From Octopus vulgaris (lineage: Eukaryota), in the NCBI GenBank assembly GCA_951406725.2, contig OX597838.1:1240001-1304000 (forward strand): DNA of 64,000 bases. Reading direction: 5' to 3'. Each line of letters opens with the position of its first letter. The stretch's first letter is position 1. The position numbers and the translations under genes were made by a program. Positions 4,301 through 49,500 of the stretch are shown here, piece after piece. Under the pieces are notes generated by a model. That model worked only from the letters and a program-made list of their open reading frames with translations, made no database searches and was not told where the DNA came from.

Positions 4301-5223
4301 TTTTAATTATTACTTTTTATTTTGTCTTTATTTTCAGGGTATCTTACTGACAGAAGGTCAGAAACAGCGTATCTCTCTTGCGAGAGCTCTCTATTCCTCA
4401 GCAAACACAATTATTATGGTAAGCATAATCTACCCACCTTCTTTACATGGACTCTTCCAGTTATCCATTTACTGGCTGCTACATTTCTATTTTAGGGGGT
4501 TAAAGATTGAGTTGAACTTAACAACTCCCATCATCATCATCATCATCGATCCATTTGCAAGTTTAACACCAGCACCTGGTCCTTGGCTGTTCTTTACAGG
4601 TGTCTACTTTGTTGTAAGCATTCTAACAAAATGTCTGGTCTGAAGGTTAAGCCCTCTCCTTGCCTCCTCCCCAATCCAACTGGTCATGAAAGCTCTAAAA
4701 AGGGTCATGGATATAAAAAAAAAACACATTGTAGGCCGAGGTCACAGTTTCATTTTCTCCAAGGGTGGAAATAAAGAAAAGCTGCTTCAAACAAGATTTG
4801 AACTTTAAAACATATTTAAACGTGTTCTGTTCCCAGGATGATCCATTCTCCAAGATAGAGCATCACCTTGGACGCAATGTTTTTGAGGAGGCAGTGGTAC
4901 GCAGCATGATCAGAAGAAAACGTACAGTTATCCTTGTCTCTCCACAAATTCCTCACATCTACAATGCTTATCAGGTCAGTTCCTTTCACAGACATTGTTT
5001 TACATTATTGTTGTTGATGTTACCTTGTTGCATAAATGTGCGTGTGTGTGTGTATTTGTTTGGGTGTAACTTATTTATTTATTATTAAATATTAAATATG
5101 ATAATATAAATTATTTACATGTTTTTCAGTTATGAAACAATTTGCCGTAAAATTAGAATTTTTTAACTTTTATATATAATTTCATCTAAATATTTCTGTA
5201 ATTTGTGACTTCTCTCTCTGTCA

Positions 5224-5267
<44 letters not shown>

Positions 5268-5755
5268 ATATGGAGAGAAAGAGAGTGTATGTCTGATTGT
5301 ATAATGTCAGAAGATGAGTGTTGTATGTCACACACGCACACACTTTCATATACATACATATACAATTTCATATTTACATCTCTGTCCATACTTTCATATA
5401 CACGCACTTATATGCACTCATCTACTCATACTTGCTCCCTGTTCATTCAGTACACACCAACTCTGCCATGTATACTTATACAAACACAGACACACGTACA
5501 CAGTCAGATAAACTCCTACAGATACACCTACACCTTTCACACACGTGTATACACATAATAGTGTTTTGTACACTATACACACACATTCATACAAATATAT
5601 ACAGGCGTGGCTGTGTGGTAAGAAGCTTGCTTACCAACCACATTGTTCTGGGTTCAGTCCCATTGTGGTACCTTGGGCAGATGTTTTCTACTATAGCCTC
5701 TGGTCAACCGAAGCCTTGTGAGTGAATTTGGTTGACTGAAACTGAAAGAAGCCCG

Positions 5756-5823
<68 letters not shown>

Positions 5824-8800
5824 GTGTGTGTTTGTCCCCTATCACCACCGCTTGACAATCAGTGTTGGTGTGTTTACATCCTCATTACTTAGTGGTTCAG
5901 CAAAAGTAACTGATGGAATAAGTTACTAGGCTTTGAAAAATAAGTTCTGGGGTCATTTTGTTCGACTAAAACCCTTCAAGGCGGTGCTCCAGCATGGCCA
6001 CAGTCAAATAGCTGAAAGTAAAAGAACACACACACATTTACACACGATAGTAATTTCTACACATGCATGTCCCCCCTCCTCCCACACAATAGTAATATGT
6101 GTTTTGTTTCTCTGCAGATAATTGTTGTGAATCGTCACCAAATCAAATGTCAGGGAAGATTGAAAGACATAAAGCGTGCTGACCCTGACCTTTATGAAAG
6201 CTGGAGAAGAGTACTGAAGGATAACAAGTAAGTGTTAGCCCCTTTACACTTCACATCTGGGTTATATTATTCTTGCCATGCCTACATTTTATGTTATCCC
6301 ACTTGATTTTTTGTATTGTAACAACCATTACCTGTTTGATATTAACCTATTTTATTGTAGTAGAAGCTAAAATAATTGAATGTCGTGTTAACCCAGATAA
6401 ATGATGTGAGGTTAACCCATGTGGTAATTGAATGCTGTTAATACACTTAAATGAAAGGGGGTGATGGTGGTTTAACCCATTTAGCCATTGAATGTAATAT
6501 TAACCCATATAATTGATTGGAGTTGGGGGTTAACTCTTGAATGCAGTATTAGCCTACATTAATTGAATGTGGGCTGTTAACCCATGAAATCATTGAGTGT
6601 TTTAACTTCACATAAATGGGGGAGTTGGTCAAACCATATAATCCCTGAATGAAGTATTAACCCACAAAATGTTAACCCTCTCCCACATATTACAAGTCTC
6701 TTGACATCATTGTAACCCGCGAATATTCATATTGTGTTAACCCTCCTTCGTTCCCCGTATACTTAGCCGACATTAGCTGCCCCTGTCACACAGAGATCGC
6801 TTACGTCTGTTCAAATTGCTATTTTGTTGTTAGACCAAGTTACCTCCCTTCATCAATACCGAGTAGTCTCCCTTACTTAGAGATGATCCACTTACTCTCT
6901 CAGTTTGTAAAGTTTATAGTGTCTCCTACTTTGACATTCACTAATCCCATTTATAGCCATTATATTAATTATGCGATCCACATCCTTAATATTTGTTCAG
7001 GGTATATAAAGTAAATGCTAGCCCTCTCCCCAACTTCCTGGCCTTCTCTCTATATTTGAACTCGTTGAGAGGGCTGCCAGAAATCTGTAGAGTATTGGAC
7101 AAATATTTTCTGGTATTTATGTTGTCTAAATAATGTATATTTTCTTTTACTTGTTTCAGTCATTTGACTGCATCCATGCTGGAGCACCGCCTTTAGTCGA
7201 GCAAATCGCCCCAGGACTTATTCTTTGTAAGCCTGGTACTTATTCTATCGGTTTATTTTGCTGAACCACTAAGTTTGGGAATGTAAACACACCAACATTG
7301 GCTGTCAAGCAATGGTGGGCAAACAAGCACAGACACACAAATACATACATATAGACGAGCTTCTTTCAGTTTCTGCCTATCAAATCCACTCACATGGCTT
7401 TGGTCGGCCCAAGACTATAGTAGATGACACTTGCCCTAGGTACCACGCAGGAACCATGTGATTGGTAAACAAATTTATTACCACACAGCCACTCCTGTGC
7501 CTAAGTTACACAGCCACTCCTGTGTCTGTTCAGAGTTCAAATCCATTTGGGGTGAACTTTACCTTTTACTGGAGTTGTTAATATAAAGTTTGAGTCAATA
7601 AACTTCACCCCAGAAAATGCATGGCCTTTATTATTATTATTATTATTAAGGCAGAATTGTTAGCACGCCAGGCAAAATGCTTATCGGTATTTTGTCAATC
7701 TTTACGTTGAGTTCAGATTCCACTGAGGTTGACTTTGCCTTTTACCCTTTTGGGGTTGATGAAATAAGTACCAGTTACACCTTGTGCCTTTAGTAGAAAG
7801 GATTATTATTATTATTGGTGTTGTGGTGAGCTGGTAGAATTGTTAGTACAACAGGTAAAATGCTTGGCAGCATTTAATCCGACATTTTATGTTCTGAGCT
7901 CGAATCCTGCCAAAGTCTGCCTTGTCTTCCATCTTTCTGCAGGCAATGAAATAAGGTACGAGTTGTGAACTGGGGGTCAGTGTCAGTAGTGGAGTGGCAG
8001 CATTGTTAGACTGTGAGAAAAAGAAACTACTGTTCCAGCACTTTTAACATTCTGAGTTCAAATTCCACTGAGGTCAACTTTACCACACATCCTTTCAGGG
8101 TTGACAAAATAAGTTATACCAGTCAAGTCCTGGGATTCAAATTTAATTGACCCCCAGTACTTGATAGATATTTTACTCGGTTCCTATCCCCATTTTCCAA
8201 ACCTTGTGCCATTATTGAAAACAATTATGGTAGCAGATTGGCAGAAACAGTAGAGAGTCTGGAGAAATGTTTTGCCTATTTGTTCTGGTTCTGTATATTG
8301 TAAGTTCAAATTCCACTGAGTTTGATTTTGTCTTTCATTCTTTTGGGATCAATAAAGTTTTAGTGAAGAATTGGGGTTGATATAATTGCTTAATCCCTTC
8401 ATAAATTTGCTGGTCTTAAAGTAAGTTAGTGGGGTTGATGGAATTGACCATCCCACCCTTTGTAATTGATGGCCTTGTACCTAAATCCTAAATAATTATC
8501 AACATCATCATCATTGTCAAGAACACATAAATTATAATAATTAATCAGTTTTACTTTATCTTCTAACTTTCATTATTATATCAATTTTATTTCCAGAAGA
8601 ACTAATGTGGTTGAAAGGTATTTTTGATAGATTTTTATATATATTGATGTCATGTGGTCATGTCCTTGTCATGCAGCTGTATACTGTGAGTGTGTGTGAT
8701 GTAGTAAAATGTTATCAGTATCTGTAGAGTACTGTGTGTGTGTGTGTGTGTGTGTGAGCTGGATGTTGCAAAATACTCTGTGTGTTTGTGTGTGTGATAC

Positions 8801-12699: not shown

Positions 12700-12747
<48 letters not shown>

Positions 12748-12849
12748 TATCTATCTAGCTATATATATATCTTTTGATTTCCAATGTGCATTTTTCGCTT
12801 ATTTTTCTTCTTACTTTCCCCTTACATTGCAACATGTAGTTTCTATTTT

Positions 12850-12916
<67 letters not shown>

Positions 12917-15900: not shown

Positions 15901-18900
15901 ACACATGCACATGTATACTTTAACTCATTTCCTATGTAATCTCTCTGAAATATTAAAGATCTAAACTTATTATCAGTTTAAATATGTTTGGGGTATATTT
16001 AACAAACGTGTAAGAATGCCTTTCACTGCATTTTCTTGCTGTTGACAAGAAATTTTCTCCATGACAAAATACAGTGAATGACCTTTACTATGGATTCGAA
16101 TGTGCCTCAAGCATATTTTCATCTTGTAGCAAGTTTGTATTCATCTACATCATTGCTTAGTGTGGTCACCTTGTATTTTCAAGATCTAAGTTTAAAACAG
16201 TCTCCAAGTAAGATGCTGCCCTTTTTAAACCCTTTGGCATTCAGAGTATTCTATCAAATGTAACATTTATTTATCCACACGTTTTTGAATTTATCCAGCA
16301 TTATCTTGTAATTTTGAGATTTCAATTGTGTGACTACTGTATATTTTTTAGAACTAGCATTGTAGGGTAGGTTAGAGAGACTGGATCTGGCCAGTTTGGT
16401 CGTAAAACAGGAAGAATATTTGGGTCAGTTTAAATGCTGAAGAGTTGATTTCTGACATGCTGAATGGGTTTAGATCTACAAAGAGATAACTTAGGGGACA
16501 ATGTAATAAATTTGGTAGACAGTATGGCCAACATTGAAACACATTTGGCAGAGAGTAGAACACATTTATTATTTATTTATGTGGAGTTTATATTTTATCT
16601 GTGTGGTATTTTTGTTAACTTCCAGGCAGGATATTGACCATGAGTTAGACAAGCACCGGCGAACTAGTTTTGACCATATCTCTGAACCAGTACACAAGCT
16701 GTCTATACAGGTATGTTGTCTCCAATCATTTTGTGTGTGTGTGTGTGTTTTCATATATATTAACATGAAGAAAGCTATGAAAAGGGACAGTGGCTACATG
16801 TGAGAAGTGTGCTTAGCTTTCTCGGCTTCTCTGAGTGGATTCACATTTACTTTTAAAGGCATGGGTTAATGTGGAATCTCTATATAGTTACTCGATCTGC
16901 AAGAAATAGTAGCTAAGTCTTCCTTAACACTTTATAATATTAAAAAAAGGACACATTTAATGTCACCTTTAATCCTAGGTTCATTGAACTTGCAAATGAA
17001 TGGCAATAACAACAAATAAACATGTTTTAGAGATAAAAATATTTTCTTTTCCACATTTTGCACTTAATTTCCCTTATTTTTGTATATTTTGATGTAGTAT
17101 TTTTAGAGTAAAAAGGACAGTATTAAAATCTGTATATAAACTAGTGTTATTGGGGAGAGCAAGGGCCATACTCGGAACATTTGTTTAATGAGAAACAAGG
17201 GCAATCCCTTAAAATTGTGTATAAACAAATGTTATGGAGAACAGCACAGATCAAGCTCTACAACCCATGTATGTTCTAATGTTGTTGAAGGCCATTAATA
17301 GAATCCTATGTATATACTACGAGGTTACTCAGGTGAGTAAGAGTGGTTTAAAAGCTTTTCTGGTCCCTCAACACTTGTTAGTTTCATGCAGTTCATCGTT
17401 TCTTTGTATTTACAATTTGATGAAAACTCTCTTTTACTACTACAAATACCAATCACTTAATAAGGTCATTGCTGGTTAGTTCATGTTCGTGCAAGCCCCA
17501 TGTGTTGGTGTTAGTCCCTGTTTTGGTGTTAGTCCCATGTGTTCGTGTTAGCCCCATGTGTTGGTGTTAGTCCCAGTTTTGGTGTTAGTCTGTTTTGGTG
17601 TTAGCCCCATGTGTTTGTGTTAGACCCTGTTTTGGTGCTAGCCCCATGTGTTGTATTAGTGCCTGTTTTGGTGTTAGTCCATATTTCGGTGTTAGCCCCA
17701 TATGTTGGTGTTAGTCCCTGTTTTGGTGTTAGCCCCATGTGTTGGTGTTAGCCCCATGTGTTGGTGTTAGTCCCTGTTTTGGTGTTAGCCCCATGTGTTG
17801 GTGTTAGTCCCAGTTTTGGTGTTAGCCCCTGTTTTGGTGTTAGCCCCATGTGTTGGTGTTAGTCCCTGTTTTGGTGTTAGCCCCATGTGTTGGTGTTAGT
17901 CCCTGTTTTGGTGTTAGACCCTGTTTTGGTGTTAGTCCCTGTTTTGGTGTTAGCCCCATGTGTTTGTGTTAGTCCCTGTTTTGGTGTTAGTCCCAGTGTT
18001 GGTGTTAGTCCCTGTTTTGGTGTTAGCCCCTGTTTTGGTGTTAGTCCCTGTTTTGGTGTTAGCCCCATGTGTTTGGTGTTATCCCCATGTGTTGGTGTTA
18101 GTCCTGTTTTGGTGTTAGTGCAATCCCATGTGTTGGTGTTAGCCCCTGTTTTGGTGTTAGCCCCTGTGTTGGTGTTAGTCCCTGTTTTGGTGTTAGCCCC
18201 ATGTGTTTGTGTTAGTCCCAGTTTTGGTGTTAGTCCCTGTTTTGGTGTTAGCCCCATGTGTTGGTGTTAGTCCCGATTTTGGTGTTAGCCACATGTGTTT
18301 GTGTTAGACCATGTGTTGGTGTTAGTCCCAGTTTTGGTGTTAGTCCCTGTTTTGGTGTTAGACCCTGTTTTGGTGTTAGCCCCATGTGTTGGTGTTAGTC
18401 CCTGTTTTGGTGTTAGTCCCATGTGTTCGTGTTAGCCCCATGTGTTGGTGTTAGTCCCAGTTTTGGTGTTAGTTCAATGTTTTGGTGTTAGCCCCATGTG
18501 TTGGTGTTAGTCCCTGTTTTGGTGTTAGCCCCATGTGTTTGTGTTAGTGCCTGTTTTGGTGTTAGTCCATGTTTTGGTGTTAGACCCATGTGTTGGTGTT
18601 AGTCCCTGTTTTGGTGTTAGCCCCATGTGTTGGTGTTAGTCCCAGTTTTGGTGTTAGTCCCTGTTTTGGTGTTAGTCCCTGTTTTGGTGTTAGTCCCTTG
18701 TGTTTGTGTTAGTCCGTTTTGTTGTTAGTCCCAGTTTTGGTGTTAGTCCCTTTTTTGGTGTTAGTCCCTGTTTTGGTGTTAGCCCCATGTGTTGGTGTTA
18801 GTCCCAGTTTTGGTGTTAGCCCCATGTGTTTGTGTTAGACCCTGTTTTGGTGTTAGCCCCATGTGTTTGGTGTTAGTCCCTGTTTTGGTGTTAGCCCCAT

Positions 18901-21900
18901 GTGTTTGTGTTAGTCCCAGTTTTGGTGTTAGTCCCTGTTTTGGTGTTAGTCCCTGTTTTGGTGTTAGCCCCATGTGTTTGTGTTAGTCCCATGTTTTGGT
19001 GTTAGTCCCTGTTTTGGTGTTAGCCCCATGTGTTTGGTGTTAGACCCTGTTTTGTGTTAGCCCCATGTGTTGGTGTTAGTCCCTGTTTTGGTGTTAGTCC
19101 CATGTGTTGGTGTTAGCCCCATGTGTTGGTGTTAGACCCTGTTTTGGTGTTATCCCCATGTGTTGGTGTTAGTCCCTGTTTTGGTGTTAGCCCCATGTGT
19201 TGGTGCTAGTCACAGTCTTGGTGTTAGTCCCTGTTTTGGTGTTAGCCCCCATGTGTTTGGTGTTATTCCCTGTTTTGGTGTTAGCCCCATGTGTTGGTTT
19301 AGTCCCGTTTTGGTGTTAGCCCCATGTGTTGTATTAGTCCTGGTGTTAGCCCGTTAGTCCCAGTTTTGGTGTTAGTCCCTGTTTTGGTGTTAGCCCCATG
19401 TGTTTGTGTTAGACCCTGTTTTGGTGTTAGCCCCATGTGTTGGTGTTAGTCCCTGTTTTGGTGTTAGCCCCATGTGTTGGTGTTAGTCCCATGTGTTGGT
19501 GTTAGTCCCTGTTTTGGTGTTAGCCCCATGTGTTGGTGTTACTCCCATGTGTTGGTGTTAGTCCCTGTGTTGGTGTTAGCCCCATGTGTTGGTGTTAGTC
19601 CCTGTTTTGGTGTTAGCCCCATGTGTTGGTGTTAGTCCCTGTTTTGGTGTTAGTCCGTTTTGGTGTTAGCCCCATGTGTTTGTGTTAGACTCTGTTTTGG
19701 TGTTAGCCCCATGTGTTAGTCCCTGCTTTGGTGTTAGCCCCATGTGTTGGTGTTAGTCCCATGTGTTGGTGTTAGTCCCTGTTTTGGTGTTAGCCCCATG
19801 TGTTGGTGTTAGTCCCTGTTTTGGTGTTAGCCCCATGTGTTGGTGTTAGCCCCATGTGTTGGTGTTAGCCCCATGTGTTGGTGTTAGCCCCATGTGTTGG
19901 TGTTAGTCCCTGTTTTGGTGTTAGCCCCCATGTGTTGGTGTTAGTCCCTGTTTTGGTGTTAGTCCCATGTGTTGGTGTTAGCCCCATGTGTTGGTGTTAG
20001 TCCCAGTTTTGGTGTTAGTCCCTGTTTTGGTGTTAGCCCCATGTGTTTGTGTTAGACCCTGTTTTGGTGTTAGCCCCATGTGTTGGTGTTAGTCCCTGTT
20101 TTGGTGTTAGCCCCATGTGTTGGTGTTAGCCTCATGTGTTGGTGTTAGTCCCAACTTTGGTGTTAGCCCATGTTTTGTGTTTGACCCTATTTTGGTGTTA
20201 GCCCCATGTGTTGTGTTAGTCCCGTATTTGTTGGTGTTAGTCCCTGTTTTGGTGTTAGCCCCATGTGTTGGTGTTAGTCCCTGTTTTGGTGTTAGCCCCA
20301 TGTGTTGGTGTTAGTCCCAGTTTTGGTGTTAGTCCCTGTTTTGGTGTTAGCCCCATGTGTTTGTGTTAGTCCCAGTTTTGGTGTTAGTCCCTGTTTTGGT
20401 GTTAGCCCCATGTGTTTGTGTTAGTCCCTGTTTTGGTGTTAGCCCCATGTGTTTGTGTTAGTGCCTGTTTTGGTGTTAGTCCATATTTCGGTGTTAGCCC
20501 CATGTGTTGGTGTTAGTCCCTGTTTTGGTGTTAGCCCCATGTGTTGGTGTTAGCCCCATGTGTTGGTGTTAGTCCCTGTTTTGGTGTTAGCCCCATGTGT
20601 TGGTGTTAGTCCCAGTTTTGGTGTTAGTCCCTGTTTTGGTGTTAGCCCCATGTGTTGGTGTTAGTCCCTGTTTTGGTGTTAGCCCCATGTGTTGGTGTTA
20701 GTCCCAGTTTTGGTGTTAGACCCTGTTTTGGTGTTAGTCCCTGTTTTGGTGTTAGCCCCATGTGTTTGTGTTAGTCCCTGTTTTGTTGTTAGTCCCAGTT
20801 TTGGTGTTAGTCCCTGTTTTGGTGTTAGCCCCTGTTTTGGTGTTAGTCCCTGTTTTGGTGTTAGCCCCATGTGTTGGTGTTAGACCCAGTTTTGGTGTTA
20901 GTCCCTGTTTTGGTGTTAGTCCCTGTTTTGGTGTTAGTCCCTGTTTTGGTGTTAGCCCCATGTGTTTGTGTTAGACCCTGTTTTGGTGTTAGCTCCATGT
21001 GTTGGTGTTAGTCCCTGTTTTGGTGTTAGTCCCTGTGTTGGTGTTAGTCCCGATTTTGGTGTTAGCCACATGTGTTTGTGTTAGACCATGTGTTGGTGTT
21101 AGTCCCAGTTTTGGTGTTAGTCCCTGTTTTGGTGTTAGCCCCATGTGTTTGTGTTAGACCCTGTTTTGGTGTTAGCCCCATGTGTTGGTGTTAGTCCCTG
21201 TTTTGGTGTTAGTCCCATGTGTTCGTGTTAGCCCCATGTGTTGGTGTTAGTCCCAGTTTTGGTGTTAGTCTGTTTTGGTGTTAGCCCCATGTGTTTGTGT
21301 TAGACCCTGTTTTGGTGCTAGCCCCATGTGTTTGTATTAGTGCCTGTTTTGGTGTTAGTCCATGTTTTGGTGTTAGCCCCATGTGTTGGTGTTAGTCCCT
21401 GTTTTGGTGTTAGCCCCATGTGTTGGTGTTAGTCCCAGTTTTGGTGTTAGTCCCTGTTTTGGTGTTAGACCCTGTTTTGGTGTTAGCCCCATGTGTTTGT
21501 GTTAGTCCCAGTTTTGGTGTTAGTCCCTGTTTTGGTGTTAGCCCCATGTGTTTGTGTTAGACCCTGTTTTGGTGTTAGCCCCATGTGTTTGTGTTAGTCC
21601 CAGTTTTGGTGTTAGTCCCTGTGTTTGGTGTTAGCCCCATGTGTTTGTGTTAGACTGTGTTTTGGTGTTAGTCCCATGTGTTGGTGTTAGTCCCAGTTTT
21701 GGTGTTAGCCCCATGTGTTTGTGTTAGACCCTGTTTTGGTGTTAGCCCCATGTGTTGGTGTTAGTCCCTGTTTTGGTGTTAGTCCCATGTGTTGGTGTTA
21801 GCCCCATGTGTTTGTGTTAGACCCTGTTTTGGTGTTAGCCCCATGTGTTTGTGTTAGACCCTGTTTTGGTGTTAGTCCCATGTGTTGGTGCTAGTCACAG

Positions 21901-27553: not shown

Positions 27554-27589
<36 letters not shown>

Positions 27590-28259
27590 ACGATGGGCTT
27601 CTTTCAGTTTCCGTCTACCAAATCCACTCACAAGGCTTTGGTCGGCCCGAGGCTATAGTAGAAGACACTTGCCCAAGGTACCACGCAGTGGGACTGAACC
27701 CGGAACCATGTGGTTGGTAAGCAAAATACTTACCACACAGTCACTCCTGTGCCTACATTTAAAATATATTTCTCATCGAATCTAAATTAAATTTCTTTTT
27801 TAAAGTATTTATTATGTAACAATTACAACATTGTTGTCAGTATCATGATAGTTATGTGCATTAAAAATCTGCAACAACGAAAGGAAGATTTAAATATACA
27901 CACTCTAATTTTGCTTTGAGTACTTTCTGAAAAAAAATTTAATTGTAAATTCAAAAGAGTATGTGTGTGTGTTTCTTTTTAACTTCTTTAATAGGAGGAA
28001 AGCAGTGTCCATGATCTTTTACAAGGCCTCTGAGAATCATGGGCAGGGGTTTCCAAATTGGGGGACGGGCTAGCCTGAACTGAGTTGACTCCCCTAAAGT
28101 GGTGGCATTAAACTGAATGACAGGTTAAGGCTCAAGACAGGATTTGAATTCAGAATGCAAACAACTGGAATATATACTAATCAGTTGGAAAGTTTTAAAA
28201 ATATATATGTCTGCATACATACATGCACACACATACATACATATATGTATGTATGTATG

Positions 28260-28291
<32 letters not shown>

Positions 28292-34200: not shown

Positions 34201-36016
34201 TTAATTAATATTTTGACCAGGAAACCTTGGGCAGCTGTATTTCACAAAACTTTTCATTTGTATTATAATACATTTACTCAAATGAAAGACAGTGCTGATT
34301 GAGTGCTACACTACTTGTTTAAGCCTGGCCATGCAATATGTATATATGCATATATATATATATCTATCATCATCATTGTTTAATGTCCACTTTCCATGCT
34401 GGTATGGGTTGGGTGGCTTGACAGGAGCTGTCCAGACTCCAACTGTCTGTTGTGGCATGGTTTCTATGGCTGGATACCCTTCCTAATGCCAAACACTTTA
34501 CAGAATGTGGTGGATGCTTTTAATGTGTTACTGGCATGGGTGCATCAGTGCAGCACTGGCACGAGTGCATTTCATGTGGCACCGGCACCTGCAAAGGACA
34601 TGCACGTATGTATGGATGACCATGATTCTTCTTAGCTCAACACATCTTCTCAAGTACAGCAAATCACCTCAACTCCTGGTCACTTGTCATTTCCTCAGTG
34701 AGGCCCAGTGTCTCAAGAGCCTTTCACACCACTTCACACCACTTCATGGGTCTATCCCTTTCACACTAAACATAAATTTTATTTCTGGTGACAATCTTCT
34801 ACAGTCTAATCACACATAAGATGTAACAATGTTGATCTATTTTTTCCTTCTCTGTTTGCAGCACACACCTGTCAACCACACCTTCTATATTGGTTTATAT
34901 ATGGTCATCTGTTTAAGCTGTGTGGCAGTCACAGTGTTGACTGGTCTATTACTAAAGTTCACCACAGTGAGAGGAGCTGACCGACTTCACCAGAAGATGC
35001 TTCATTATTTGACCAGTTTACCTGTGATGTAAGTGAAACAGTATCGAGTTCTTCTCTTGACTGTAGCTTATTACAGGGATTATGGGAATGAGGCATGATT
35101 AGAAGGAAAAGAAGAATAAAAGCTGGTATGTGAGGTGATAGATAGCTTTTTAGTTCCTGTGAGCAGGAGCTGGTGTAGTATAAGTATAAAAGGCAGTGAG
35201 AGGATATAGTGTATCTGTGTGGTTGTGGTGTGTTGGTGAGTGAAGGTTTGACAAGTATTTAGGAATATGTTATGGGCCTATATGCCTACTGTATGTATGT
35301 TTGGATATTAAGTAGGCCAGGGGCAATCCATGTCTTGAAAGTATAAACTAAGGCTTGTAGCTAAGTGTACCTTGACTAGAACTGATTGATGTTACCTGTT
35401 ACCTATAACATTCAATATGTGAGTGTTTGACTGTTCTGTTTTCTGTTTCAGTCACTTTGAGTCAACCCCACCTGCCACTATTCTCAATACATTCTCAGCA
35501 GACAGTCGTATTGTTGACCAGGTAAGTTCAGTGTTTTGAGTGTCTGTGGTGTTGGTCAGCTGAGCATTTCTCCACTCACTTCTCTCTCATTCAGCATTGG
35601 TGCCATGGAAAGCGGTTGACGTCCTGAACCTTATCCAGGTCTGCACCTTGGAAAGGGTCATTCTAGTTATAGATCCATTGTCTCACAAGATATACAGGGG
35701 CACTGGGTAATATGTGTTTGTGTTTATGCATCCGTATATTTACATCTGTATGTGTGCGTGTGTGTGTATGCACATACCAGAAAGTTATCATTTCTGCCTG
35801 AGTAAAAAAATATGTTGTGAATGTACTTACGTTCCTGGTGAATATTTTGGTGCAATAACTGTGCTCTTGAAATAATGGAACGGAAACTTCCTTTCTTATC
35901 TGTAAAACAAGAAATGGTAAACTAACATGGAGATCATCTGGTTATAAAAAAACACTGCTTCGAAAATGACATTACCTCTCCAACCTGTCCACTACAGCAA
36001 AATGAAGAAAATGAAC

Positions 36017-36049
<33 letters not shown>

Positions 36050-37515
36050 AAAATATTAAAAATAGGATAAAATCTTCATAAGAATTTATAAAGTAGTTAG
36101 CGTGAAAAACCTCATAAGAGAAAAAAAAAACATCAATTTTTTCCCTTAAATTTATTTATTTATATTATATAGAGGGCACTATTGCACATAAATGCTACAT
36201 GCTAGCATGTGGCATTTATGAGTAATAGTGCCCTCTATATAATATATATATATATCATCATCATCAATGTTCAATGTTTGCTTTTCATGTTGGCATGGGT
36301 TGAACAATATATATATGCACATACACACACACGTATAGGTATGAACATCTGCATTGAGGATGGTAGAATCATCTGGCTTAGGGTCACAACATCTGAACTA
36401 ACAAAGCTTGTATTGTTGTGTAAGAGTTGTGTTGCCTGCATCAGTGAGTGGCCCTGAGGACTTCTGGTATCATGGTGGAAGGGGCCAAAACACCTGGAAA
36501 GATGTTTCACTGCCTGACAAGCTATTGATCCTTGCATTTAGAGAGGGCACCCTCAGCCCACAAGTGTTTACTCTAAATATGTATTCACACCGACACACAT
36601 TTGTATATGTCTAGCTGTAGATGTTTATTCTGATCTCTGTTTCCGTTGTCAGACGGCAACCATGCTGGTGGTAGGGACTGTGAAAGGTTTTAGTCCCCTA
36701 CATCGTTTGTACTTAATTTTTAATGACTTATTTTATCAGTTTCTGTTTGTTGCACCACTAAGCTGTGAGATATAAATCTAGATACTATTTCTCCAAATGA
36801 TAAATGCAATGACGATAAATGCAATGACGTATCATTAATTGCATTAAGTTCTTGTTCAACATATTTGCAATAATTCTATGCTTGTTCCTCCTCCATCCAT
36901 GCCATTTGCTTCTCTCTATAGGCATTGACCTCGAAGCACTTGAGAGATTTTGGTATTCATCCATCCATTCAGATTCCAGTGGAATAAGTAACTTGGGATA
37001 CAAGTAACAACTGGCATCAGGAAGGGAATCTGGCCATAGAATACTGTATTGATAAGTCTCTCTTTGTGTATGTTCCTTATATCAAAATTGAAAGTTTACT
37101 CAAAGTTTTGCCCTGGACTGAAGGAGCAGATGTCCTGTTTGTGCTTGCTCAAGAGCATCTTTTCAGTACACTGTGCACACACACGCTTTTATTCATTTCA
37201 GCCATGTAGCTGTGGTCATGCTGGAGCACCACCATGATTTTATACTTTTACATACCATTTTATATCCATTTCTATCCTGTTTATTTCAGATCCTACCAAC
37301 AACCATAGAGTTATTGTTGAGGTTCTTACTACAAGCAATCATAGTGCTGGTCATCTGTTCTATAGCTATGCCCTATTTTGTACTGGCCACTGTTCCTATA
37401 ATAATACTCTTTTATCTGCTCTTCAAATTTTACCGACCTTCCATCAGGTTAGTCTTTTTCTGTCTTCTTAATGCTTTCCTGTGTCAAACAAGGCTTGTTT
37501 ATGCATGGTAGATGC

Positions 37516-37554
<39 letters not shown>

Positions 37555-40500
37555 GGAATGGACTACATTAAATTAAAAGTGGTTTACCATAAGTTTTGCT
37601 CTCTGTATTTGCTAAGTAATTAATGTACTTGACAGACTTTAATAGTTAAAAATAGGAGTGACTATTTTGAAAACGAGTTTTATGTAAATATAAAGCTAAG
37701 AGGGAACATGAAGTGTAGAGGAAATGTTGTGAAATAGAGAAAGAGGATGGAGTACGGCTAAAGTGTTAGATGTACAATTAAGAATAATAGAGAAAGAATG
37801 TTGTTTACGTGACAAGGGATAAGGAGCTAGAGTTCCTTTTGCACCAAAAGTCAATATGAGAGTTTCTCTTGAAGTGTTTTATTATTGTATAGTTTATTGT
37901 AACAGAACCTCCATGTTTAAGTAAGGATAAATATTACCTCTCAGTATCTAGAGGACAACAAACATCTCCAGTCATATACATTATTTTTATTGAAAAAAAA
38001 TTCAAAGTCTTACAGCTGTTTCTGGGATATTCTGTCATCAGACAAATGGGGAAAATGAGAAGGGTATAGATTAATGAAATGATGACTTAGAGGACAGGAA
38101 TTAAGGAATATGAAGAAAGAGGCATAAAAGTTCACAATTCAACTTTCTAAGTTCTATTTTCTTCTCTTCATCTCCTTATTCCTTTATTCCTGTCCTCTAT
38201 GTCGTCGTTTCATTAATCTGTATCCTTCTCATTTTCCCTATTTGTGTCCGATGATGGAATATCCCATACTGAATTTTTTTTTTCCAGTAATAATAATGTA
38301 TCTGACTTGAAATGTTTGCCTTGCCTTAACGTTTGTTGTCCTCTTAAACAATTCTATATCCGCCATATAGGAAATCTGCAATGGTTCCATAACTACCATC
38401 TCGGCTATAACCTTGGGACCGTTGTAATCCGTTACAGCACTTACCTAGTATACTTGGTCGTTTAGATCACCTTTGAACTAAATCCCATATTTTGTATATA
38501 TATATATATGTGTCTATATATAAATATATATATATATATATTTCGTTTTTGGATTAAGTTTGCAAGATTCTTTATGCGAGTTCGTGTGTTGAAGCATATT
38601 CTGTTGTCTGGGGACAGTCATTTTCTTTTTATGCCTTATAATTTAACACACTCACCCGTAAAATTTCCACTTATTTCTTATTTTTATTTTCCTAAAAAAA
38701 TGCATCTCCCCAGACACAACAGTATATATATATATATATACACACACATACATACATATATTTATATCTACGTATGTATATATACATATGTATATATATT
38801 TAGTAACTTATTTCTTTGTCAACGTAGGTAAAAGTCACATGAATAAAAGAATTTACTTGTAAGGCATGTGGAAAGAAAAAAAATCTATAAAACTAAAGAC
38901 AATAAAGTAAATGGTCTTTATTCATTTTCAGTTATAATTAGGGGTTTCTGATTGAATTATGCTAAGGAAGGAAGTGATGATGAAAATTGATATTCCAAGA
39001 AGTAATAGATGTTAAGAAAGAAATATTTTGATATGGAGAAGTAGAAAGGTCATCAACATGCCAGGTTGTGGTCTGGGAGGTAGTATGTAGAAGGAATTGG
39101 GAAAAGAAATACAGACCAAGATGAAGGTGAGTGAGAAGAAGATCATAATGAAAGACAACTAATTAGGTATTGGAAGGAGTTGGAATCAAAACAGATGGAA
39201 TATACTTTATCAGCCAAGTGTAGCTGACACACACAAACACACGTGCGTGGAGTTGGTAAAGTACTCTATAGTTTTCATTAATCAACTCTCTACAGTGAAT
39301 TATTTCTCTTCTATTTTATAGACAGCTCAATCGTCTTCAGAATCTTACCAAACTGCCTCTTTTTAACCATTTCTCAGAAATTCTCAGTGGACTTCGGACA
39401 ATTCGAGCTTACAGGTATATTTGATGTTTTCCATTACTAATTTTTGTCACAACTAATTTAATTTATCAGCTTGTTACTAATTTCTGATTTAATTAATTAG
39501 TTATTTCACCAGTTCTTTACCATTCATATATCAAAATACATGATCATAACCTGTATTTTCCTTGAAGTGGAATAACAAGGTAAGTTAGCTCTCCTCTCAA
39601 AAATCTAAAAATTACTGAAGTCAAATTAGGAAGAGTGGTGTAAATGATTAAGCAATGGTAATTAAAACTGAAAATTAGTTGAGTCCCTAATTTTTAGTAG
39701 CTCAGTGTCATGCAGCTGATAGAACACATTGACTTGTAGTTGCCTGTTTTTAAATTCTATTTTCAGGGTACAGTACTGGTTTACTGGTTATGTTACCCAT
39801 GCAATAAACGTATTCAATGTCGTCTTCCTGTACATTCATGCTGTGAATCGGTGGTTAGCCATACGCTTGGTAAGTTTTACTCTTTCTAATCTCAACATTA
39901 TTTCATTTTACTCAAGAGGTTGTCTGTTGGTTGTGTCAAGTAAGATGACTTGGATGGATCGCCACAAGTCTATACTTTGTGTTTCACTGTTTGAATCCAT
40001 TTAGTGGCAAACAGTTGTTATTGGAAACCAACAGAAAACCAGTTTGTCGACCCACCATATGGAGATTAAGTTTTCATTTAATGACTCACTGATTTGGTTA
40101 ATTAAGATGTTAAAACTATAGAGTGAATGTTCAGGGGTTCCAACTTTACTAAAGCCAGACCCTTTATTTAATCCATTTGAGAAGCCCTGTATGAAACAGT
40201 GTTATAGGACTTTCTCTACCTCCTCATGGTATCTATTATAATGAAGTGAAATAGGTTTTTAGTAGGGGATATACACATCCCCAGCATCTGTATAAAAACT
40301 CAAAACCTATAAACTGTAATCTCCACCTCACCCCCTAACCACTGTAATCCTTACAGGTTGACAGATCCTTAATATTTTGATGTTTACTCTGTTGGGACAA
40401 TTGACATCTCTTACATGCACCCATTTCTTTACAAGGGAGTGCTGTAAAGTTCCTGGCTTTAAGAGTATTGTGAAAGGCCTGGTTGGAGGCCCAACTTTCC

Positions 40501-43500
40501 GAGTTCTTTTACAGGGCTTAGAAAAACTAAAGGACCACTGCAATAAGTGTGTGAATCTGAGAGGGATGTTGAATAAAATCATAATTAAATAATCCTCCTG
40601 TATTTTCTTTTACCCAAAACCAGGAACGTTAAAAAAAAACCCTTTGTGTTTGTACATCATAAAGTCTTAGTAAAAACAACAAAGGCTTTTATATTGTCAG
40701 AAATATGACATAGGGATTCAAAGGCCCAGTATTCAGTTGTCTGACCATATTGGTAAGAATATATAATTCCTAATTGTAGCACTACTGCCATGTATAAAAC
40801 GCAGCCAGATCACTCCAGCTATAGAAACCATGAAAAAACAGACAGTTGGAGCCTGGGGCAGCTCTCTGGCTCGCCAGCTCCTGTCAAACGTTCCAATCCA
40901 TTCCTGTATAGAAAATGGATGTTAAATAATAATGATGACGGTGATGATGACACTGCAACATAGATTTGCTGAGGAGAAAGAGAGACATGGGACAATTGGC
41001 TTCATTACTTCTCTGGTGTCTATTGGCCCACAATAATAAAAAGCTAAGTGAAATATGCAGAATTGAACTTGGACTACTATTGCTGCTGCTTTAGAAATAG
41101 TAATTGTTTCTAATTTTGGTACAAGGTCAGCAATTTTTGTGGGTTGGTAGTGTAAGTCAATGAAGTTGACCCCAGCCTTAACTGATCCTTTACTTTATTA
41201 AATCTAAGAATGTAAAGTGTCTGAACAACTGTCTCATTGCATCTTTGCCATGGTGCTAACAATTCTGCCAGTTGATCACATTCAGCAGTTGTAATAACAA
41301 CAGTTATAAGCTTCCCAGAATAATGTTTCTGTCCATTTAAATGGTTAACTTGTGTAACAAGAACTTCTTATTGCAGGATTTCCTTGGATGCCTTATTTTA
41401 TTACTGGCATCACTTGGTAGCTTGGCTTTCTCCATTCAAAACGAAGAAAATGGCACATTAGTTGGACTCTGTATGTTGAATGTTCTCATGGTAAGTAGAA
41501 TTTGATGAGTTCTTCATGTTTTGGTAGAATCACAGGATCACATTTCCTTCCTTAGTTTTGCTGAAAGCATTGCTGACCCCTACAAGTCATCTCTGAAATT
41601 CCTCTTCCAGCTGGACTGGTCAGCTCTTGTATATTTCTGATAAACAATACCTGCATTGGAGAATTGTGTAACTGATTCACATATGCAACACTGGCATCCA
41701 GTTTCTGATTGAATAGTTAAAAAGCGATTTAATATCAGATTTCCAGTACTAACCTCCAGTATTTTTCTGACTGGATAGTGATGCAGTGAATGAAATTTTA
41801 GTTCTTACCGAAATCTTAAACATTCCACTGACCAAAATACAAAACATCACTGTCTATTGTGAATGTAAATTGGAAATCAGAAACAATGTGACTGATGTCA
41901 TTATAATGCCCAACATTAATCTGGAGATAAATGTTGTAATTTTCAGGGCAGCTGAGCCACTCTTGTGTAAAACCTTTATATATACGACCCGTATAATATA
42001 TACATGCTAATTCATATTTCTTTGGTTCTCTTCTTGAGTAGAGAAATTTCTTGGATGATTTTATCTTTATTTTACTGTACATCTATGTAGTAATATATTT
42101 CTGATGGAAACTATGATGTATTTTTTCATCATTGCTCTGTGGAATTTTTATCTATTTCAGATGCCAATTTATGTGAACATGATAGCACGTCATGCAACAG
42201 AACTAGAGAACAACATCACGTCTTTAGAAAGAGTTGTGGAATATGCTTGTGAGACACCACCTTCAGTAGATCCACCAGGTGTGTCATCATTTTTATTGTC
42301 TTTGAATATTTATTGAAGTCTTGTACCATTGATTGTCATCCTACAACTCTATACACTGCTGCTGGTAATGTCTTGAAATGTTTGGCAAGTCTCTGCTTGA
42401 ATTAATGCCAGAGTTTCTAAGTAGCTCTGGAACCTGATCAGTGCCACAACATAACAGTCAGATCTCATTTCACTAATTCCAAACTGTCTGTACATATTTA
42501 ATGTTCAATCTAATGCCCGACAATAAAGACAAAATTGTAATTTCTAACTCAGTCATAGAGACAAACAATTCAGAAAAGAGAACAATGAGTTATATGAATC
42601 TACAGTTATTTTATTGACCCCGGAAGTGAACATGAGATGGATTTGAACTCAGAATACAAAAGTGTGCTGATCATTTTCTCTCATGCTCTACTGATTATGG
42701 CAATCCCTGAAATATTGATTGTATACCTTATTTGATTATTTACCTATATACTACACTGTATATGTATTATGTGTGATACAAGTACTACGTACTATATAGT
42801 TATTACCAAATGCCAAAGAGGTTCTATGTATTATATAGATGTTCTTAAGTACTGTGGTTGTACTTTTAAAGAAATGAAGTGACACAAATGAAAGTAAAGA
42901 AAAAAACACAGGAATATTTATTACTTAATGGTGAAGGGAACAAACACTTAAAAGTTTATGCAAAGATCTGATGTGTTGATGCAGTTGTGAATGGTAATAT
43001 TAACAAACACGGTATCCAGAAATAACCTGTTCATTGTCATCTATCGAATAAGGAAGATTTTGTACATGACAAAATGCATCAACTTTGTAATGTTAGGGTG
43101 GTGTAGAGAATTGTGTAGTTCTAAGGAGTGACTCTGGAAAGTGGCACCACAAAAAATTGCCTGGTAGTGCAACTGCAGCAGCATTGATGGATAACTAATC
43201 ACTTGTCTGATATATTTTCACACCTTTAACCTTAGTTTTGTGTTTTATATTGAATATGTAAGCTACTGATTCCTAATGAGTTACCAGAATAAATTGTCTT
43301 CCAAAGAGCAAATGATAACACTTTTTGAGAGCCTCAACTTTCACATAAACCCCTTTTTCTATTGTGCAATGATTTCATATGGTTTAATTTAGTGATTAAG
43401 AAAAGAAAGGTAACAGGCCTGCCATTTTCCTTGATGGTGACCTTGAAAGACATCAACGTCGAGGGTAAACAGCACATGTTTGTTAACTTAGTCCTTGACT

Positions 43501-46500
43501 GACTGTCATTACTGTTTTTGAAGACATTGGTGGCCATTACTGCTTCCTCAGAGCATTGACCAGATGTCTTTTGTTTTAGAGAAGTGAGTAACCCATCAGG
43601 AATATGCAAACAGACCTGTTGTTATGTGGTAAGGGTTCATTAGCAAACATGGATCTCTGAATGGAGGTAAACATAAGGAAATCAAGATGCAGCTCATTGT
43701 GGCTTAGAATAGAATATATGAATTAGAATATAACCTAGAATACAGATAGATTCAAAATCTACACCTTCTGTGTCATTTAGATTTATAAGAGCGCTTTAAG
43801 AATTTATATAAATTTTTGTTATGTTCCTCTTTGATCTTATCACATTTCACATCACATAAATAAGATTATCCATGTTGGAAACATGCAACATTATTCGTAA
43901 GAGCAAAACTAAGACATTTGAATTGAAACATTTGACTGTCTTATCATCAGAAGGCAATAGAGTTGTATGTGCTGTGTAAGTTGGTAGGATTAAATAGCTT
44001 CTAAAAAGAGATTTTGTTTGAGAATTTAATAGTATCAGAAGAGCCAACTGTTGATGCTCTTCTACTTGAAGAGTTTCATCAGGTGGACATAGATTTTCTT
44101 CAGTCCATTTCTTTAAATCGAATATAAATTGGATAATTAGGGAAGGTCGGTTATTTGTAGGGATTTGTGAAGCAGATTATATATTGTCAATGGAATGTAG
44201 CAATACTCCTACAAAACTCCTTCCCTAAATTATTGTTTGCAAAGTAGAAATGCTATTTTAGTCAAATAGATTAATTATGTATTTTTTAAAATTACAGTTT
44301 TGCATCTAACTTGCCTTTATTCTAAAATGTTATTTCGCTTTTGTCTTTATATTACAGATTGCATTGAGGTACCTGAGTCTTGGCCAGATGTTGGTGACAT
44401 TGAATTTCAACATATTGCCTTAAACTATGATCCTGAACAGAGCCCCGTTGTTATGGATGCCACTTTTACTATAAAAGATGCGGAAAAGGTAACAAATCTT
44501 GTTGTTTGTGATGGTGATGGTAGAGGTGGTTAATTACAGACTTACGCTGTGGTAATAACTGATCATTTCTTTGGGAGTGACTCCTCTCCATACATCTAGC
44601 GAGAACTGGTAGAGAAGGACTTACTGTAAAGATGGTGGATAGCTTAAAGATTTGTCTGGTAATATTGTGGGATATGCGATATATATATAACCCTGATCAA
44701 ACAAACTTTTGATCAAAGACGTTCCACCTGTCATTTATTTTTTTCAGAAATAATGTATGTCTTGATGGTAGTGTGTTATTTCAGGAAGATTATATTACCA
44801 TATCTGTGAGGGTATGTGAGCTAGTGGTTAGGGTGTTGCACTTACAATTGCTAGGTAGTGGGTTCAATTCCCAGATTAGGAACACTTCATTTCATATTGC
44901 TCTAGTCTATACAATTGTAAATGAATAACCCCATGATGGACGAGCCTTCCAATCATAATTCGAAAGCTAAAACAATGCAAGGTGCATTGTGACCAGTGAT
45001 GTATAACATTCAGTAGTTTGGTCAATCACATGATCATGTGACATTACCCTATCTAGCTGGTCATGTGACATTACCCCTATCTAGCTGGTCACGTGACCAC
45101 ACATCAGCTCTTTTGTTGGTTTGTGTATGTTATGCAAAGGTGGAGTGATGCTGAAGATGTTGATGGTTATATTTAGTAATGTTAGTGCTGGGATGATGAC
45201 TAGTCTAGAGGTGGTTAGTCATGGTGACAGTGGTTGTGTGTGTTCCTTCTATTGCTGCCAGTTACACAGCAGTTTGTTGTTTTTCTATATTTCAAGGTGG
45301 CCTTCTGTGGACATGCTGGGAGTGGGCGATCATCTCTCATCTTATCCTTATTCAAGATGATCCATGTACATGAAGGAAAGATCTTGATAAACTATCAGGA
45401 CATATCAGTTGTGCCGTCCCAAGTTCTGAGATCTCGTCTTTCCATTGTACCCCACGACCCAATCATGTTTGACGGAACAGTCAGGTGAGTTTCTCATTCA
45501 TCATTTCAAATCTACATTATTCCAAACTCAACATGTTGTCTGTCTCTATAAATTGTATCTATCATTGTAAAACTGTGATGTGGACCAAATGGAATCTGTG
45601 TTTACATTTGCAGTTGTTCAGCTTTTCACAAAAATTTTAATCTTCTTTGAGTAATACTTTAGGAGTAAATAGTAAATTAGCTAAAGAGACGAACTGCTAA
45701 ATTGGATAGAGTGGCAGATTACTAACCGATTGATTTGTTGCTGTAGAAATACATACTTTATCAGAGGTGAGTATAAAACCACTGAGGTTCAGGGTTGAGG
45801 TATGAATAGACTCTGGAATTTGAAACTGTGTTGAAGTAGATACAGAAATAACTGGCCAAATGTCGTAGCTCAAATATGCCAGATACATCTAGCCTGTCAC
45901 TTTAAACTTAAGACACAGTTAAGCTTCTACTCAAATGAAGCTTTATCAAATTTTATTAAAATAACAGTTTGAACAACTTGTGTAAATCTATGAATTTGTA
46001 TATCAAGTAAACCTGTATTAAACTAAAACCAAGCAAACATAAAGAGAGTCAGTTAATGCCGATATCGGAAATGTTTTGTTTTTCAGGTTCAATCTCGATC
46101 CAGAAGGCATATATAAAGATCCAGAGATTTGGGAAGCTTTGAATGCAGTTCAAATGAAAAGCACAGTTCAAGAGCTTCCCCATAAACTGGGTATGTTGAT
46201 AAAGATGTTGTATTTTTAGGATTGCCATTGCTTGACACATCAATAATCACACACACACCTTCCTTTTGTTATATATAATGTCAAACTGACCCTCATAGGT
46301 AAACTCCAAACTGATCTTACATATACTTTCAACAGCTGATTAACCTGATTAAGATCTCTGAGAAGACATTTTAAACTACTTTGACACTTAAATATGTTGA
46401 TTGAATGTAACACATTCTGAAGGGTTTCCTGTTATTATTCTCAGTCAGCAGTTCGTTACTCGGAGGAATTTCATTAATTTGGACATTAAACCAAAGGTAG

Positions 46501-49500
46501 ACAGGGAAGCTTACTTCTGCTGTTGTTGTTTAGCCCCAGGTCAACCTTTATCTTAGTTGTTCAAATCACGATCTTCATAGAGAGGTCTGTTATAATATTA
46601 ATGTACTTTTCTTTTGTTCACATGTTAGGGTGTAATTGGAGGGGAGATTTGGCTGTTATTTCTAGCAGGTAGAATTCCCTCATTGGTCTTAAAAAGCCAT
46701 TGCAGAACTCATTGGTAACTGGTTCAACTTATGGAGAAGAAATGGGTTTGGTGAACATAGTTGCCTTATGAATGTAGGTCAATTTTCTCTCTGTTGAAAC
46801 CATTCAATTGGTTTTTGTGTCCTGATAATTGACTGACCACAGTTCACTAGTAGCAAGAACATAAATGGACAGCAAAATACACAGAGGCCTTAGCTAGAAA
46901 GTAAATTCAATGAAATGAAGCCTATCTGGACTTACAGCCAGTGAATTTTCATAGTTGCAGCAATCTTTTTTTTATGGATGAGAAACCTGGACTAAGTCCC
47001 TAGCATCTCTTGAAGCTCACTCAAATTGCAGAAAATGACCAGTAAATAACTCTGTAGCAACCTTATTTCAGTTGACAAATAAGACAATAGTTGCTGTTTA
47101 ATAAAGGCATTGATTGAGGCAGCCAGGGTTGCTCACCAGCCAAATTGACGCATGGCATGATGAACTGTGGAGTGTCCTTCCAAGACCATGGTCAAAACTA
47201 ATGAAATGCAATGCTGCTATGATTGATGAAGAACTTAGAACACTAATGGATGATGGAATGGGGTATATGGTGCACCTATCATTGTGTCGAAAACAAGTGC
47301 AAGTTGTAGTCATTAGAAAGACTTTTTTTTTCTTTTTTTGGTATTCCATACTAATATTTATCTCACGATCACAACACACCCATCTATCTGTATATATATA
47401 TTTATATAGAATTAAAATTTTCAGGATTTGGTGGAATCAGAGTATTTAGATAGCAAAAGCAGCAAGGTAGAGTTGGGGATATTGACATATACATACTTAC
47501 TAAAGTAAATATGGATTTGTCCTTCCAGTTATGCACACACACACACAAGTACTTACAGAATACACAGTATGCATTCAAAGTCACACGGGGGTACACTCAC
47601 TGCACAAACTCCACAGTTGACTATAGGCTCCAGATCCAAATGCATGGAAGGTTCCAAGTTAGGTGAAGAATAAACAATAACCTATCTGTGTTTATTGTGT
47701 GTGTGCGCGCACATGCAGACACACACACACAGTTTCTGCAAGGTTAAGGCTGCCCCTGTCAGCACTTTATATTATATCTGGGTACTCTCCTTTAGCAGCT
47801 ATAACCACGAGACCCCTTCAATGTGGTTAATTAGGATTTCCTGTATAACTGCTTAACATTTCAAAGAGACACTCAGAAGTACACAGTCGAAGTTGCCCTT
47901 AATATTGAACACTATTTTGTCTGAATTCTGTAATCTGTGTTACCCCAAATGTTGTAAGCTATATATCCCATAATCTGTGTTATCTCAAACACTTACCTCT
48001 AGCCTCTAATCTGTGTTACCCTAAACACTGTCAGATGTAGCTTGTAATTTGTGCCCAAACAGTTGAAATTATCGTTTATATGGTTATTTTTACCAGTGAT
48101 ATTTCTCTCCACAGAAACTGTTGTCCTCCATGAAGGCAAGGAATTTACTATTGGCCAAAGACAGGTGAGATTTTCAAATGTTTTAATTGTTCATTTCCTT
48201 TAGCCGATGTTTATTACATGAAGGTATTGGATTAAATAATTGACCACAAGATCGCATGTTCAAAACCAGCCTTGTACAGTCATTGTGTTTGATTCCCTAG
48301 GAAAGTTTCCTCATTATGTGTGTGACTTAAATATATGTAATCCTTGTTTCTTTTACAGCTTTTCTGTTTTGCTCGAGCTTATATGAGAGACAGTAAAATA
48401 GTTATTGTGGAGCAGGAACACACTAACGATGATGCCTTGATGGAGGAAACCATTCAGGACCTCATCCGCACTGTGTTCAGGGATTCCACCGTTCTTGTGA
48501 CTTTGGTGAGTGAACTTTATTTTCAAATCCTGAATATATTAAAGGATTGAATTAACTTAAATTTATTTTAAAACCAATTATTTAAACATATATTCATTGA
48601 AATAACTCAGATTTCCTTAGCGCATATGCAAGTGCCTCCTACATTGTGCATGTATATGTGTGTGTGTGTGTGTAGATTTGGAGGCATTGTGTATAGCTTG
48701 ACAAGTATTTCTTCAAACCACAGCAAAGGTAAGATTTGAACACAGCAATGTAAATCAACAATGCTCTCAAATGCAGAATGTCAGCTGATCCAGGGCAGAA
48801 GGATTTGTTCTGGCAAAAGTGTCCAGTCCATTGACTTGTAGTTTTAGTCAAACCCCTTACTGGTGCGTCTAACCCCTTACTGGTGAGTCCAACCCCTTAC
48901 TGGTGAGTCCAACCCCTTATTTGTGAATCCAATCCCTTATTGATGAGTCCACAATACTCTTTAAAGAGGCCAGATTCCCCAGTTTCTGTGGCATACGCAT
49001 TCCTCCCTGGATGGGATGCCAATCCATTGCAGGGTTACTCGTTCTCTAGCTGAGTGGAATAGTGCAATGTGAAGTGAAGTGCTTTGCTCAAGAACTCAAC
49101 ACATTCCCCAAACCAGGAACTGAAACCACAATCTCAAGATCATAAGTCGAACACCTTAACCACTAAGTCATATGCCTCCACTATTGATTTAAAAAAATGT
49201 TATTCCTTCATAAAAAATACATTTTACTATATCTCTCCTCCTTCAAATGAATTTTAGACTAAGTCCTCTTACTAACCAATTGTTACTAAATTCTAATTCA
49301 ATTCTTAAATTATCCTTTGCTTCTCCACACTCCCATTAATTATAGTAATTCCTGTACCTGGTTGATAAATTAGCTTGTTCATTCTTAAGTGTTAACAAAC
49401 AGAAGCCATGTTGTCTTCCAAGTTGAAAGACTCAATTGTGTGTAGGCAGCTCTTTAGAACTGACGGTTGCTCCTAAAATGGTAAGGAATGATTCACAGAT

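Follow-up and report, generated by a model that had tools for sequence, protein, structure and literature searches.

In vertebrates, the SUR branch of the ABCC family is represented by SUR1 and SUR2, the regulatory subunits of KATP channels. These proteins have the layout TMD0-L0-TMD1-NBD1-TMD2-NBD2. They are normally non-transporting, and the first helix of SUR1 TMD0 is described as the main anchor to Kir6.2 (PMC9700523). At NBD1, SUR1 W688 in the A-loop stacks on adenine (bioRxiv 10.1101/2025.06.10.658839). In ABCC proteins such as MRP1, CFTR and SUR, ATP is bound but not hydrolysed at a degenerate site 1, which has an altered Walker B and signature (PMC7756269), and this site is paired with one active site.

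The consequences of damaging the active site are known from mutants. The Walker B Glu is essential; its exchange for Gln impairs hydrolysis across ABC proteins and stabilises the ATP-bound state (PMC7756269; PMC4397924). In SUR1, E1506Q binds MgATP more tightly (KT 0.9 versus 200 uM, given as about 200-fold) and MgADP more weakly (PMC4397924). K1384A is reported to bind nucleotide with little loss while the dimer is destabilised (PMC6400584), and Walker A or B mutants are described as impaired in activation (PMC4699857). All of these are single changes. Whether SUR needs hydrolysis to regulate its channel is still controversial, according to bioRxiv 10.1101/2025.06.10.658839, and the partners of invertebrate SURs, those of arthropods included, are presented as not settled in reviews and in work on crab (PMC12258255; PMC11577616).

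Among the matches listed in a search of abstracts, none dealt with a cephalopod SUR or with its motifs; the tables of genome papers may still mention one. In databases the protein is called ‘ABCC9-like’, with no further remark. A preliminary description of the locus had proposed a non-transporting regulator, which is the normal condition of vertebrate SURs (PMC9700523); what sets the octopus gene apart from these known SURs is that the catalytic site has been lost.

Structure of the octopus gene

The window is a 64,000-nucleotide stretch of the Octopus vulgaris genome (contig OX597838.1, positions 1,240,001 to 1,304,000), and positions below are those of the window. On its + strand it holds the 3' two-thirds of the octopus ABCC8/9 (SUR) gene, comprising NBD1, a linker, TMD2 and NBD2. 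Splicing modelled on the O. sinensis protein P0001 gives 23 coding exons at 1197-50252, all with AG/GT borders and no internal stop, and the open frame runs to the stop codon at 50252. Upstream of the window the gene extends for about 32 kb, with TMD0, L0, TMD1 and the NBD1 A-loop at G000:C25:1207565-1238272. Of the 22 in-frame exons first placed at 4338..48505, the open frame and splice sites stand; the count is 22 only without the 48-nt exon at 30205-30252, and the gene extends further in both directions. This small exon is missing from the Argonauta protein P0002 and is likely alternative, and the window has no match to a 14-residue micro-exon of P0001. Alternative exons aside, the model differs from three Octopus vulgaris records by one residue from NBD1 onward.

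All seven motifs quoted in the preliminary description are present on the + strand. The first NBD1 exon in the window is the Walker A exon (1197..1302), in which GPSGSGKST (GPSGSGKS at 1217) has the canonical Lys and Ser, followed by a Q-loop exon with the canonical Gln (2671..2766; YCSQPPW) and a helical-subdomain exon (3124..3208). The signature exon (4338..4418) carries LTEGQ (4347-4361) in place of LSGGQ, which forms the NBD1 half of site 2. The next exon (4837..4974) contains the end of Walker B, the D-loop SKIE (4849) in place of SALD, and an H-loop, LVSPQ (4933), from which the His has been lost. A C-terminal exon (6118..6227) completes the domain. All six exons are found in spliced contigs.

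The acidic NBD1-TMD2 linker (16626..30252; exons 16626-16710, 24084-24171 and 30205-30252) is predicted to be disordered, and the small exons of the region 6228-33163 differ among isoforms. A Ser-rich linker block that begins SIQSNL is common to the octopus and abalone SURs, and phosphorylation control of this segment is possible. The introns also contain a 6.2 kb minisatellite at 17497-23655 (18-19 bp unit, about 334 copies) and, at 14656-15315 and 25776-27232 (+), two LINE-like pieces of broken reverse-transcriptase sequence with a PHD-like finger; 3' of the gene, at 53340-54137 (-), is a fragment of a DDE transposase, also broken.

In the spliced model, TMD2 occupies eight exons (33164..42278), and a 14-residue stretch of its coupling-helix region departs from the FFDT(N/T)PxGRxxNRF of other invertebrate SURs. 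The NBD2 A-loop exon (44358..44488; ALNYDPE) keeps, in model and alignment, the adenine-stacking Tyr. The following exon (45297..45484) carries the Walker A motif GHAGSGRSS (45309), with K>R (Arg codon CGA) as well as R>H and T>A, and the Q-loop IVPHDP (45444), with Q>H. Two exons (46087..48164) end in the signature FTIGQ, which is of the ordinary degenerate ABCC type. The Walker B/D-loop exon (48359..48505), whose 12-residue motif starts at 48398, has D>E and an exchange of the catalytic Glu for Gln, and it keeps the terminal D-loop Asp. The last coding exon (50079..50252) starts with a retained H-loop His and ends in the stop codon.

Orthology, copy number and transcription

Assignment to the SUR-like ABCCs is borne out by structure matches, sequence matches and phylogeny alike. 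The best solved-structure matches of the NBD2 Walker A exon are SUR2 and SUR1, and the same exon finds full-length ABCC9-like proteins in Octopus sinensis, Argonauta hians and Sepia (Acanthosepion) pharaonis, together with two further proteins from assemblies. The octopus protein aligns to SUR2 from residue 29, with the TMD0 blocks present and two copies each of the Pfam domains ABC_membrane and ABC_tran, so that a SUR-type TMD0 and L0 precede the ABCC core. In a tree built by a fast method (FastTree; 25 rows, four of them outgroup rows cut from longer models), the coleoids form a clade within the mollusc SURs (support 100), sister to gastropods plus bivalves. Support is 100 for the SUR clade, apart from the MRP-type ABCCs, and for the mollusc clade; the coleoid stem measures 0.89 and the crown branches about 0.2. 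On this sequence evidence, the octopus gene is a genuine SUR orthologue of the mollusc lineage, set apart by a long stem. In an AlphaFold model, both NBDs and TMD2 fold (mean pLDDT 80), and its structural matches at ranks 1-18 are all SUR1, SUR2 or KATP, a result that is not independent, as the folding alignment was SUR-rich. The Atlas search returned generic ABC domains only.

The abalone SUR as query detected a single TMD0 in the octopus genome among the best 28 of 218 candidates, belonging to the window gene, and the octopus TMD0 as query detected only the gene's own (11/11 candidates scored). Over the exon-wise searches (best 28 of 218, 28/28 and 11/11 candidates), no canonical SUR paralogue was found, and the other ABCC exons seen in the genome have MRP-type motifs with a canonical DE. 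The possibility of a redundant paralogue beside a canonical SUR was rejected on this basis, a missed copy being unlikely. At G000:C20 72.0-72.3 Mb, three or more MRP1-type ABCC genes are clustered; two are nearly identical, and all have canonical motifs.

The segment 18.8-61.2 kb of the window has a partial duplicate on the - strand of G000:C4:176344422-176369847 (L027-L029), with about 94-97% DNA identity and internal deletions. It retains seven SUR exons and contains a stop codon and a 7-codon deletion, with four non-synonymous changes and one synonymous change over 851 aligned bases. Unlike the gene on C25, it is a decaying copy.

In contigs from four runs, one per study, the exons of the NBD1 region are joined directly over their introns, with no other letters at any position of these exons. 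One spliced contig is 6433 bases long, and the LTEGQ and SKIE exons are among the listed pieces in 3/4 runs. The runs are not registered as RNA, but genome hits include no processed copy of the SUR gene, and this, together with the exact skipping of introns, points to mRNA as the source of the contigs. Expression is indicated in this way for the NBD1 exons; the transcript state of the NBD2 exons in octopus comes from annotated protein records.

Loss of the consensus ATP site

At the normally catalytic site, coleoid SURs have exchanged Walker A K>R, Q-loop Q>H, Walker B DE>EQ and signature LSGGQ>LTEGQ, so that both halves of the composite site are hit, as the preliminary description had noted. 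It had also asked whether orthologues share the changes, and they do in three Octopus species, Argonauta and decapodiforms (72-74% identity). The motifs agree in 21/21 coleoid records wherever they are covered, and canonical motifs, which would have spoken against the reading, are absent from all of these close orthologues. All four changes are present in each of the four coleoid proteins of a 45-row alignment. The other 41 rows (SUR/ABCC) have Lys, Gln and Asp-Glu throughout, and SGGQ in 40, with a gap in one model.

The rarity of this state was assessed at eight site-2 positions in the 150 top-ranking representatives from a search of the full library, 149 of them non-coleoid. The coleoid protein is off consensus at seven of the eight positions; the others depart at none in 148 cases and at two in one case, and the NBD2 Lys, Gln, Asp and Glu are kept in 149/149. 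A seven-position departure of this kind is not chance. The A-loop Tyr and H-loop His of NBD2 are nevertheless both retained where a competent ABCC would have an aromatic residue and His.

In NBD1, the coleoid D-loop reads SKIE, ATIE or STME and has lost its Asp. The SKIE motif is present as first described; in the general architecture of ABC proteins, the NBD1 D-loop is part of the damaged site 2, not of site 1. The H-loop His is indeed gone, which is an ordinary condition, as 33/148 other ABCCs lack it. At site 1, the Walker A Lys, the Q-loop Gln and Walker B (DD) are invariant in coleoids. The A-loop Trp, encoded upstream of the window, has been replaced by Thr, Met or Lys, at a position that is aromatic in 97/100 other ABCCs scored. 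The suggestion that NBD1 may still bind ATP thus keeps its basis in Walker A and the Q-loop but is weakened by the A-loop.

With Arg, His and Glu-Gln in NBD2, and LTEGQ and an altered D-loop in NBD1, the octopus gene fails the definition of a catalytically competent ABCC, and the label of KATP subunit is not warranted. Homologue searches returned no Nautilus sequence by name, and the change is consequently dated no closer than the coleoid stem. Elsewhere in the genome, another divergent ABCC NBD2 exon (L084, G000:C21:23226645-23226842) has the signature SSGMKQ and a canonical DE.

Uneven evolution of the domains

Root-to-tip rates in coleoids relative to gastropods and bivalves, from fixed-topology IQ-TREE branch lengths per domain (13 rows), are 0.88 for TMD0, 1.81 for TMD1, 1.82 for NBD1, 2.09 for TMD2 and 2.32 for NBD2. 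The last has the longest relative stem and the shallowest crown (0.09). A similar pattern appears in columns conserved in at least 90% of 39 non-cephalopod SURs (from 41, a duplicated model and a fungal MRP being dropped). Losses common to all four independent coleoid sequences amount to 0/14 columns in TMD0, 1/6 in L0, 9/37 in TMD1, 15/66 in NBD1, 15/48 in TMD2 and 21/68 in NBD2. The difference between TMD0 (0/14) and the core (60/219) has a Fisher p of 0.024, which is rough because the four sequences fall into two pairs of relatives. A conserved TM17 Trp is among the residues changed (W>M).

At each of the 21 lost NBD2 columns a single new residue is invariant in the coleoids, and octopus and decapodiforms resemble each other more closely in NBD2 (87-88%) than in any other domain. 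NBD2 is for these reasons constrained and not decaying, as judged by protein conservation, which was used in place of dN/dS. The docking domain was spared, the ABC core underwent a single rewriting, and the resulting NBD2 has been maintained from then on. The octopod-decapodiform split is about 270-300 million years old, and a SUR without its catalytic residues has been kept since before that split.

Candidate partner channels

Four Kir loci (L074-L077) were found in the octopus genome, none of them on the SUR contig, and there is no clear Kir6 among the four. The best-conserved is L074, which is Kir2/3-like and has His at the G334 position. A small residue at the Kir6 G334 position is described as allowing ATP binding (PMC9700523). 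The divergent L076 has Gly there and is best matched to Kir6.2 by only 7 bits; it is a candidate SUR partner, as a lead only. L077 (three exons) has Asp at this position, and forms with L076 a head-to-head divergent pair at G000:C6:109.316-109.334 Mb. Exact look-up of two Kir frames gave no match. SUR1 K205 is not kept in molluscs. When TMD0-L0 was modelled with two L074 copies, the prediction scored 0.00 against a mark of 0.34, with the alignments unused and the controls not folded, and it speaks neither for nor against an interaction.

Possible functions of the coleoid protein

Taken together, the coleoid SUR is an intact, conserved protein whose catalytic ATP site has been rewritten and is predicted to be hydrolysis-dead; on known ABC chemistry, ATP turnover and active transport would both be absent. 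Probably the only SUR of coleoids has become a pseudo-ATPase, full-length and non-catalytic at both sites, that would regulate a channel by nucleotide binding alone or without any nucleotide. The fuller proposal, to which we give about an even chance, is a hydrolysis-dead channel subunit that docks through TMD0 and likely still holds nucleotide at site 2. Such an auxiliary subunit would sit on its partner by the conserved TMD0. The partner would most likely be an inward-rectifier K+ channel, for which SUR would act as a chaperone and set the gating level. Site 2 is the likelier of the two to still bind nucleotide, because its Tyr, His and D-loop Asp are kept and the replacements are chemically mild and invariant; the binding reported for SUR1 E1506Q and K1384A also favours it. 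More tentatively, nucleotide might stay there as a fixed ligand, and switching by the ADP/ATP ratio, as in the human protein, would have been lost. Binding at site 2 may be lost as well, given the negative charge that signature G>E would bring near the phosphates, the changes of Mg2+ ligands through D>E and Q>H, and the impaired activation of SUR1 Walker A or B mutants.

Were both sites closed to ATP, the protein would be a nucleotide-blind scaffold or chaperone, with fixed NBDs and NBD2 serving as a protein-binding surface. This is possible, if doubtful. Site 1 lacks its A-loop Trp and its His, with variable replacements, and site 2 has changed at seven positions at once along with the coupling-helix region; SUR1 cut before NBD2 is reported still to chaperone Kir6.2 (PMC6400584). 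Against closure of both sites, the site-1 Lys, Q-loop and Walker B are invariant, NBD2 keeps its Tyr, His and D-loop Asp, and the replacements are conservative in charge or size (K>R, D>E, E>Q, S>T), a bias not expected of free drift. The roughly twofold divergence of TMD1 and TMD2, TM17 W>M included, could instead mean a different job altogether, in which the ABC core has no channel partner and works as a nucleotide-gated passive conduit or a sensor of another ligand. There is a precedent in a TAP D-loop mutant described as a nucleotide-gated facilitator (PMC7756269), and the coleoid NBD1 D-loop is altered. The intact conserved columns of TMD0 speak against such a role, as do the vertebrate SURs, presented as without known transport in bioRxiv 10.1101/2025.06.10.658839, and no substrate or pore feature has been identified in the coleoid SUR; we consider this reading unlikely.

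It is more improbable still that the substitutions compensate one another and leave a slow ATPase with ordinary SUR function. The invariance of the new residues and the retained H-loop His would suit this, and SUR ATPase rates are reported as low in any case (PMC4397924), but the catalytic Glu is Gln, and no other ABCC representative has given up any of the four NBD2 residues. Hardly any weight is left for a pseudogene, a mistake in the assembly or repair of the gene through the A-to-I RNA editing of cephalopods. A broken duplicate does exist on C4, and the GAA of LTEGQ could in principle be edited to Gly. The frame is open, however, the same motifs recur in every coleoid record that covers them, and the NBD1 exons run unchanged through the spliced contigs, which is why the gene cannot be regarded as a pseudogene, young or otherwise. 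Repair by editing was likewise rejected, as A-to-I conversion of CGA, CAC, GAG and CAG cannot yield Lys, Gln, Asp and Glu.

If the pseudo-ATPase reading is correct, octopus and squid cells would either be without classical SUR-type metabolic sensing or have a new switch in the frozen NBD2. The coupling of excitable cells to their energy state would then have changed in a way specific to cephalopods. The protein also offers a natural test of the need for hydrolysis, since its NBDs could be grafted into SUR1 or its own partner studied, and it could help to settle the role of invertebrate SURs without Kir6.

Comparison with known systems

Vertebrate SUR1 and SUR2 share the domain layout of the coleoid protein and are its best sequence match (926 bits versus 558 for MRP1), with TMD0 40-42% identical. 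In both, site 2 matches the consensus (GRTGSGKS, Q, DE, LSGGQ) and site 1 has its Trp; each of these is altered in coleoids, where K205 is absent and no clear Kir6 partner was found among the four Kir loci. The direct orthologues, in gastropods, bivalves, annelids, arthropods, echinoderms and cnidarians, all keep a canonical site 2 in the species sampled. They are about 40% identical to the coleoid SUR, and its losses are concentrated in the ABC core. A signature change in the same motif, LTPGQ in the Branchiostoma belcheri ABCC8-like protein XP_019616773.1 (P0282), is apparently independent; this one predicted protein keeps the Walker A Lys, Q-loop and DE.

The SUR1 mutants E1506Q/D/K and K1384A are, by alignment, changed at the catalytic Glu and the Walker A Lys that are also replaced in coleoids. 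They are, however, single laboratory or patient changes, whereas in coleoids several have been fixed together as the wild type of a lineage. MRP1, CFTR and the other SURs pair a degenerate site with one active site; in the coleoid SUR the second site is degenerate too, which would make it a rare full-length ABC pseudoenzyme.
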